Source of the DNA: Shigella phage SP21535
Direction: 5' to 3' (one strand)
Length of the DNA stretch: 64,000 bases
Sequence record: PQ615101
Position numbers and translations under genes: made by a program. This document shows positions 28,824-30,163 of the stretch, piece by piece. Position 1 is the first letter of the stretch, and every line of letters starts with the position of its first letter. The notes under the pieces were generated by a model. That model saw nothing but the letters and a program-made list of their open reading frames with translations. It had not been told where the DNA came from and did no database searches.

Positions 28824-29384
28824 ATGATTAATAAAATTGTGCATGAAATGGCTTTAAACGGAGATTCATATAAAATATCTGCCGTAGTTGAAAATTTCAT
28901 ACTTAATAAAGTAAAAGAATATTTCACTGATTGTTCAGTTAGTTATCAAGAAAAAATGGTTTTAACCGATGATACTGAAAAATCAAATAATTTGTTTTGT
29001 TCTAATTTTATAACTAAGAAGCGTACTAGAAGATTTGATATTGTTATTTCTCGCAACGGTAAAAAGCATATAATTGAAATTAAACACCAAGTTGGTGGAG
29101 GTACAGCTATTGATTCGGTTGGAATATATTTAGAAGATAAAGAGAAATTAAAAGAATACACAAAAACTGAAAACCCTGTGTCATTGATGATATTAGATTT
29201 TTTGCCATGCGGATATTATCCACGTAATAAATGGACAAAAAGAGAATCATTTACTGATAATCCAACCATCCAAGCAAGGTTTAATGAATATGCTAAATCA
29301 CAAAACGTGTTAGTATTACTATCAAATACATATGATGAAGAATTATATAATTCGTTTTTTGCTGCAATAAATGAGAGAATATAA
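28824..29384 (+). CDS. Hypothetical protein (186 aa) with a PD-(D/E)xK-like motif, translationally coupled to dam
   Basis: ORF track; [20 protein letters not shown] (D...ExK); RBS GAGGA; stop overlaps the dam ATG (TAATG). Confidence 0.6.
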
Positions 29385-30163
29385 TGCTAGGAGCTATCGC
29401 GTATACAGGTAATAAACAGGCATTATTACCTGAACTTAAGCCTCATTTTCCAAAATATGACAGATTCGTGGATTTATTTTGTGGAGGTTTATCAGTGTCC
29501 TTGAATGTCAATGGTCCTGTATTGGCCAATGATATTCAAACACCAATTATTGAAATGTATAAATGTCTTATTGATATATCATGGGATGACGTATTAAAAG
29601 TAATAAAGCAATACAAACTATCAAAAACATCAAAAGAAGAGTTTTTGAAATTACGTGAAGATTATAATAAAACTAGAGATCCTCTTTTACTTTATGTTCT
29701 TCATTTTCACGGGTTTAGTAATATGATTCGTATAAACGATAAAGGAAATTTTACTACTCCGTTTGGAAAAAGAACTATAAACAAAAATAGTGAAAAACGC
29801 TTTAATCACTTTAAACAAAATTGTGATAAAATAATCTTTAGTTCATTGCATTTTAAAGATGTCAAAATTCTAGACGGCGATTTTGTATATGTAGATCCTC
29901 CGTATCTTATAACAGTTGCTGATTATAATAAATTTTGGTCAGAAGAAGAAGAAAAAGACCTTTTAAATCTTTTAGACTCTTTAAATGACAGAGGAATAAA
30001 ATTTGGACTGTCGAATGTTTTAGAGCATCACGGAAAGGAAAATACTCTTCTTAAAGAATGGTCTAAAAAATATAATGTTAAGCATCTTAATAAAAAATAC
30101 GTCTTTAACATATATCATTCCAAAGAAAAGAATGGAACTGATGAAGTATATATTTTTAATTAA
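29384..30163 (+). CDS. dam: DNA adenine methyltransferase Dam (GATC-type, DPPY motif)
   Basis: ORF track, 259 aa (the T4 Dam length); FCGG SAM-binding motif and DPPY. Confidence 0.9.

Follow-up and report, generated by a model that had tools for sequence, protein, structure and literature searches.

The Dam methylases of phages T4 and T2 have been studied for decades as orphan phage enzymes without a clear benefit to the phage. A restriction-modification (R-M) system encoded by a virus is also known, namely the GATC pair R.CviAI/M.CviAI of a chlorella virus. Here we analyse a stretch of 64,000 nucleotides from Shigella phage SP21535 (sequence record PQ615101; the whole stretch is called the window below and is numbered from its first letter). 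The record is that of a Tequatrovirus (T4-like coliphage), and the region of interest is 99% identical to Escherichia phage vB_EcoM_IME537. It holds an open reading frame (ORF) of 186 codons (28824..29384, plus strand, ATG start) directly upstream of dam, which encodes a D12-class GATC N6-adenine methyltransferase of 259 residues (29384..30163, plus strand; Pfam PF02086, E 1.9e-50). From sequence comparison and a structure model, we predict that the ORF encodes a miniature, phage-restricted variant of the type II restriction endonucleases (REases), paired with the T-even Dam. The analysis indicates that, in most phages with a dam gene, the methylase is one half of a module whose other half is a nuclease, and that the reference genome of T4 has arisen by deletion.

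Nearly all records name the gene 'hypothetical protein'. GenBank record MZ502379.1 (vB_EcoM_Shinka) labels it 'putative restriction endonuclease / putative DpnII restriction endonuclease', and a 2026 paper mentions it in passing as restriction-enzyme-like (PMC13390438). In the literature, we found no functional study or characterisation of the gene, no statement of the T4 deletion scar described below, and none of the pair being conserved as a mobile unit.

A predicted PD-(D/E)xK nuclease upstream of dam

A preliminary description of this DNA had noted a motif typical of PD-(D/E)xK nucleases in the ORF, and closer analysis bears this out. The 20-residue motif occupies residues 70-89 (29031-29090, plus strand) and includes the predicted catalytic core D72-x12-E85-I-K87 (29037..29084, plus strand), which is carried by strands beta2 and beta3. 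Together with E23, the acidic active-site residue of helix 1 (codon at 28890..28892, plus strand), the ORF thus has the residues of the PD-(D/E)xK superfamily, that is, D...(D/E)xK on the beta2-beta3 hairpin and an acid on helix 1. In an alignment of eight family sequences, two of them at 32-33% identity (the range extends down to 32%), E23, D72, E85, K87, H88-Q89 and G93-T-A-I-D-S98 are invariant. The structure model agrees, with strands predicted at residues 67-77 and 80-88, a helix at 95-104, and the alpha-beta-beta-beta-alpha-beta core fold of the superfamily present in the predicted structure. The top matches in structural comparison are orthodox type II enzymes rather than homing enzymes; the fold is EcoRI/MunI-like and the size is about that of MunI. 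The segment GGGTAIDS (residues 91-98; 29094..29117, plus strand) lies at the N-terminus of the helix after beta3, and its GTAIDS part is, by analogy with the GNAxER motif of EcoRI and MunI, a candidate DNA-recognition element. We predict with high confidence that the protein is a restriction-type nuclease of the PD-(D/E)xK superfamily.

The gene is found as identical or near-identical copies in about 150 phage genomes. The ratio of non-synonymous to synonymous substitution rates (dN/dS) is 0.05-0.08 between Tequatrovirus alleles (9-15 synonymous vs 2-5 non-synonymous differences) and 0.19 against the orthologue of Dhakavirus MX01, which is 63% identical to the equivalent cluster protein P0004. 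This range is comparable with that of dam. Judged by these ratios, the 186-residue ORF is a real gene under purifying selection.

Among family libraries, PHROG 8706, a family of unknown function, matches the protein from end to end, and no curated-library family with a known function does so above threshold. Below threshold, Pfam matches of the window protein include DpnII (16.8 bits, E 0.0045; gathering score 23 bits) and BanI, and the PADLOC type II REase model matches it with an E of 9e-5. Across the family, the Pfam DpnII model matches four of the eight members (best E 8e-5) and the PADLOC model three of the eight (best E 5e-6). Searches of PDB sequences, whether by the protein or by the family profile, gave no match, a scan of NCBIfam gave only noise, and in the BFVD library of viral folds there were no matches beyond the MX01 orthologue and weak nuclease hits. 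The profile and structure searches thus point to a nuclease fold with type II REase matches, in keeping with the preliminary description, and to no known gene of unrelated function. A reading as a MutH/Sau3AI-like GATC nuclease was set aside, there being no structural or sequence similarity to MutH. The anti-restriction role that had been suggested as one option found no support, and neither did a role as methyl reader.

The affinity to DpnII was followed with profile alignments. The DpnII profile was built from database proteins with PF04556, retrieved with a DpnII sequence that was used as bait only; one of these proteins, named DpnII, was 100% identical to the bait, and the diversity of the profile was low (63-99% identity). 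With this low-diversity profile, the default hhalign run was limited to 34 columns of the beta2-beta3 core (probability 36%, E 4e-4), and a permissive run gave an ungapped alignment of 86 columns (ORF 9-94 with DpnII 138-223; probability 47%, E 2e-4). The alignment pairs E23 with E152, D72 with D201, E85 with E214 and K87 with N216, as well as the glycine-rich loops after beta3, and the E-49-D-13-E spacing is identical. This suggests that the catalytic cores of the ORF and DpnII share an origin, and family membership is not established thereby. Because the first approximately 135 residues of DpnII have no counterpart in the ORF, the DpnII target site cannot be transferred to it. A separate search for DpnII-family nucleases beside plasmid homologues of Dam gave AlwI- and FokI-type systems instead.

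Linkage to dam and asymmetric loss

The two genes are tightly joined. As the preliminary description stated, the stop codon of the ORF overlaps the start codon of dam in TAATG (29382..29386, plus strand; TAA at 29382-29384, ATG at 29384-29386, with one base in common), and a ribosome-binding site precedes the ORF, the Shine-Dalgarno sequence GAGGA (28812-28816, plus strand) being read directly 7 nt 5' of its ATG. When 5.8 billion proteins were searched by word index and 1.84 billion representatives exhaustively by hidden Markov model, about 12 family sequences came to light, all in T4-like contexts; the matches P0016, P0017, P0010 and P0008, which look low-complexity, chimeric or fragmentary, were set aside. 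No family member turned up in the 185,579 species genomes of bacteria and archaea that were scanned, and IMG/VR contained one locus with a member. Every member with readable surroundings lies directly upstream of a D12 methylase gene, with a junction of 0 to -35 nt (abutting or overlapping). The 61-dam-56 context is seen in the window, in loci L002-L007 and L010 and in MX01 (members P0006 on five contigs, P0002, P0009 and MX01). The pair lies between denB and ndd in the Klebsiella Jiaodavirus KPV15, upstream of rIIA in the case of P0013 (L008), and on a short contig in the case of P0011. The pair has thus moved to at least three genome positions without being separated. Adjacent nuclease and methyltransferase genes, which characterise type II R-M systems, were found in all lineages and in three contexts. 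By tblastn, none of the 154 records that carry the ORF is without dam; 148 of them match the contiguous ORF-dam query and six are Klebsiella phages, KPV15 being the only one of these whose locus was inspected directly.

Dam residues K11, S112, R116, P126 and R130, which we take to be the DNA-contact residues in structures of T4 Dam with DNA, are invariant in all partner methylases, and this suggests that the partners retain GATC specificity. According to the T4 RefSeq note, T4 Dam methylates GATC in DNA with modified or non-modified cytosine.

About 508 records with a match to the 61/dam.1 flank were surveyed for the Tequatrovirus locus. The ORF and dam are both present in about 146-148 of these. 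About 35, including T4, RB55, RB59, G8, FN and CE1, have dam with only the 3' end of the ORF. In the remaining records inspected (e.g., RB9 and CHD94UKE2), dam.1 leads directly to gene 56, and neither ORF nor dam is present. Within the genus, the cassette is all-or-none as a single block (junctions 28744/30184). It corresponds to window positions 28745..30183 (plus strand, 1439 bp), and in blastn the window aligns with RB9 and CHD94UKE2 only at 28300-28744 and 30184-30500. Its GC content is about 28%, compared with 35% for the window.

T4 lacks window positions 28761-29296 (536 bp), and with them the candidate promoter, the start codon and the first approximately 158 codons of the ORF. What is left is a scar of the last approximately 88 nt of the ORF before dam (window 29297-29384, equal to NC_000866 17626-17711; T4 locus L001 2627-2712). 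Because T4 keeps this 3' end, it is a deletion derivative and does not represent the ancestral state. The 309-bp 'intergenic' region between 61 and dam in T4 contains unannotated dam.1 and the nuclease-gene scar, and the scar shares the T5 frameshift allele with T2. In T2 (L019 1501-2046), one nucleotide is missing from a T run; as a result, the seven C-terminal residues are replaced (FAAINERI to LLQ) and a gap of 13 nt separates the ORF from dam, which is intact. The preliminary description could not assign the ORF to a named T-even gene; comparison of the 61-dam interval now places it, as a deletion scar in T4 and a terminally frameshifted allele in T2. In KarlGJung (BASEL Bas37) there is a distinct 363-bp deletion in the ORF, and in G4500 a frameshift, again with dam intact in both. 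At least four independent events (T4, KarlGJung, G4500 and T2) have thus inactivated the ORF while dam remained intact. Among the records surveyed, the nuclease is never seen without the methylase, while methylase-only derivatives do occur, which is the pattern of type II R-M systems; a nuclease that is lost and a methylase whose loss alone is never seen fit the prediction for an R-M or toxin-antidote pair.

The patchy distribution can also be accounted for by a free-standing PD-(D/E)xK homing endonuclease, which would cut genomes without it, in the 61-56 interval or in dam, and spread by gene conversion in mixed infection, with dam as cargo, in the manner of T4 seg/mob. We consider this improbable. 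The ORF-dam pair is found at three unrelated positions (61-56, denB-ndd and upstream of rIIA) and not at a fixed insertion site, it is translationally coupled in every lineage with the methylase as an obligatory partner, and the best structural matches are the orthodox type II enzymes named above. The protein matches no homing family of Pfam or PHROG (GIY-YIG, HNH, LAGLIDADG, His-Cys, EDxHD and I-Ssp6803I-type PD-(D/E)xK). Moreover, the ORF was repeatedly lost while dam was kept, although cargo should be no more stable than its driver.

It could further be proposed that the nuclease fold serves no restriction role, the protein being an active or inactive DNA-binding accessory of Dam (in targeting, in regulation or at a replication origin near oriA), or acting in repair, recombination or RNA cleavage. 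There is little probability in this, in our opinion, as the whole catalytic tetrad is invariant under strong purifying selection, size and fold best match stand-alone type IIP enzymes, and tight gene pairing with asymmetric loss is what is predicted of a toxin and its antidote.

As for the control of the cassette, the preliminary description had proposed a consensus early promoter. A site is indeed present at 28770-28798 (plus strand), with TTTACT, a 17-nt spacer and TATTAT, and a TG before the -10 hexamer (extended -10), resembling the sigma-70/T4 early type. However, promoter-type matches at 9 of 12 positions number 11 in the sequence against 12.9 expected from shuffles, so there is no enrichment, and the call rests on position and on likeness to the general T4 early-promoter pattern, not on statistics. 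The cassette promoter is accordingly a predicted site that is plausible by position.

The surroundings are more crowded than first described. The ORF does lie between primase gene 61 (27508-28536; gp61, 342 residues), the upstream neighbour of the cassette region, and dam, as had been stated, but the same interval also holds dam.1 (28533-28733, minus strand; PHROG 2024), a hydrophobic ORF of 66 residues that had been missed. dam.1 takes its name from the RB9 record, is antisense to the early genes, is 96-99% conserved in about 500 Tequatrovirus records, and is present yet unannotated in T4 RefSeq NC_000866. Upstream of it on the minus strand, at about 28752-28759, is the late-promoter-like GATAAATA, and a promoter is annotated there in the Lutter record. 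A terminator-like hairpin followed by a T run (28696-28721, plus strand) lies 3' of gene 61, within the 5' end of the antisense dam.1, and may shield the cassette promoter from read-through of the 41-61 operon. In the metagenomic relative of P0002, an extra ORF of 93 residues stands between dam.1 and the nuclease gene (L010 4010-4291). Directly past the other cassette boundary, gene 56 has its own promoter-like TTGCTT-17-TATAAT (window 30165-30208; RB9 L021 746-805), in what is the oriA region in T4. Because gene 56 retains this site, the cassette sits between two promoters and leaves the expression of gene 56 undisturbed. A second variable accessory slot is found upstream of primase, where the ORF at the T4 gene 61.2 position (26982-27338) has 118 residues, compared with 208 (627 nt) in T4.

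The pair as a possible restriction-modification cassette

The preliminary description had speculated on a functional link between the nuclease-like protein and the GATC methylase. This idea has gained support from the strict linkage to dam, the asymmetric loss and the affinity to the DpnII core. We lean, by a modest degree, towards the view that the ORF and Dam work as an R-M pair, that is, as a nuclease-methylase cassette with its own promoter. That the nuclease targets GATC itself is a tentative proposal, which falls somewhat short of probable. From the comparisons, we infer nuclease activity, methylation sensitivity, the cutting of hydroxymethylcytosine DNA and the biological target.

An R-M cassette of this kind might act as follows. 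Its promoter would give one mRNA soon after infection, and ribosomes ending the nuclease gene would re-initiate on dam at TAATG, so that the nuclease would never be made without the methylase. Dam would methylate GATC in the phage's own hydroxymethylcytosine DNA and thereby protect it, while the nuclease would most probably cut the same or an overlapping site when unmethylated. Since E. coli DNA is already Dam-methylated, the likely targets would be un- or under-methylated incoming DNA; in Dam-positive E. coli this would mainly be the DNA of co-infecting or superinfecting phages, including the approximately 60% of Tequatroviruses without dam. The cassette would thus be a weapon between phages as well as an addictive module, and the 'orphan' dam of T4 would be a remnant after the 536-bp deletion of the nuclease gene.

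The strict retention of dam suggests that, without it, the phage's DNA would itself be open to cutting, and hence that the enzyme would tolerate hydroxymethylcytosine. In a Durham study, non-glucosylated 5-hmdC made up about one fifth of the cytosines of the cassette-bearing phages EL, BGP and Geo (PMC13390438). The more specific proposal, in which the nuclease cuts hydroxymethylcytosine GATC sites unless they are Dam-methylated and carriers destroy or exclude co-infecting dam-less relatives (again, about 60% of Tequatroviruses), we regard as doubtful. If true, such a phage-versus-phage GATC cassette would explain the T-even Dam, would leave T4 Dam as a vestige of such conflict, and would contribute to GATC being the most depleted tetranucleotide genus-wide.

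The methylation mark could also be read in the opposite sense. The nuclease may use the Dam mark positively (a methyl-directed, DpnI-like logic) or ignore it, and degrade cytosine-containing host or foreign DNA; phage hydroxymethylcytosine DNA would then be intrinsically resistant, and Dam would top up the GATC methylation of the host or have an unrelated role. The host chromosome, fully methylated at GATC, would offer about 19,000 targets. T-even phages already degrade host DNA with the cytosine-specific denA and denB, and early expression from the candidate early promoter would fit host-DNA breakdown. However, carriers without dam should then be viable in Dam-positive hosts, yet not one is seen among the 154 records, and genomes with dam alone recur. 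Furthermore, the only sequence affinity of the ORF is to methylation-sensitive enzymes of the DpnII type, and no winged-helix or other methyl-reading domain was found within the 186 residues in the Pfam scan or the structure model. We judge this explanation improbable.

Several points weigh against the R-M pair and its DpnII-like nuclease. The DpnII score of the window protein is below the Pfam gathering score, so the PF04556 threshold is not reached; the likeness is limited to the catalytic core, at hhalign probabilities of 36-47%; and DpnII residues 1-137, many of them invariant, have no counterpart in the ORF, which lacks the full-length architecture of about 280 residues. The linkage counts include many close relatives and come down to about seven independent lineages. 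A methylation-sensitive GATC enzyme would have no host target, E. coli DNA being Dam-methylated. Most type II enzymes fail to cut DNA with glucosylated hydroxymethylcytosine, so it is uncertain whether the nuclease would harm its own phage or could attack related ones. Viable dam mutants of T2 and T4 are described in the older literature, yet both phages have damaged or deleted alleles of the ORF. It is also important to note that the function of the cassette as nuclease and methylase is deduced from sequence comparison and a predicted fold.

The last of these points concerns the abundance of GATC. In the window, GATC is the most depleted of the 256 tetranucleotides (74 observed vs 206 expected, ratio 0.36). 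Depletion of GATC is a known property of enterobacterial phages. The observed/expected ratio in RB9, which is without the cassette, is 0.35 (locus L026 1-50000) and hence not discriminating, and GATC depletion was rejected as a signature of the cassette. It is genus-wide, compatible with the R-M hypothesis and no evidence for it. The next most depleted palindrome is TCGA (0.66 in the window, 0.55 in RB9), and among 6-bp palindromes in the window it is GATATC, the EcoRV site, that is most depleted (0.44).

An R-M cassette would provide a concrete and testable reason for the presence of Dam in T-even phages, and would suggest a new way in which virulent phages, of a kind widely employed in therapy, compete with one another. 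Its nuclease would represent a very small restriction-enzyme family, so far confined to phages, and few relatives of the DpnII type are as short as its members. Should it prove to cut hydroxymethylcytosine DNA at defined sites, the enzyme would also be useful as a reagent.

Comparison with known systems

The closest described system in sequence is DpnII/MboI (PF04556) with DpnM. The cores can be aligned gap-free, at the hhalign probabilities given above and with a glycine-rich loop after beta3, and the two have in common a GATC-specific partner methylase of the Dam/DpnM D12 family. However, the ORF has 186 residues compared with about 288, the N-terminal approximately 135 residues are absent from it, and the C-terminal third is unrelated; its active site has E-x-K where DpnII has E-x-N. 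The cassette also differs in that the nuclease gene comes first and in that it resides in a virulent phage with hydroxymethylcytosine DNA instead of in a bacterium. In fold, the protein resembles the MunI/EcoRI-like alpha-class type IIP enzymes and has a MunI-like size, whereas sequence identity is 11%, homology is undetectable by sequence, and the recognition sequence is presumably different.

The methylase half is the same enzyme as T4/T2 Dam, which is regarded as an orphan, and is 96% identical to T4 Dam. The difference is in the company it keeps: about 80% of the dam-carrying Tequatrovirus records pair Dam with the nuclease gene, whereas T4 has only the scar. Among optional genes of T-even phages, the free-standing homing endonucleases (seg, mob) are similarly patchy among close relatives and similarly inserted with their own promoters between conserved genes, but they belong to another fold family, while the ORF of the cassette is obligatorily paired with a methylase and occurs at several genome positions. 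Finally, R.CviAI/M.CviAI offers the nearest parallel in lifestyle, being a nuclease-methylase pair of a lytic virus with GATC-type methylation and a proposed use against foreign DNA. No sequence relationship to it is known here, and, unlike in that system, the host DNA met by the cassette is already GATC-methylated, which makes degradation of the host unlikely as its purpose.
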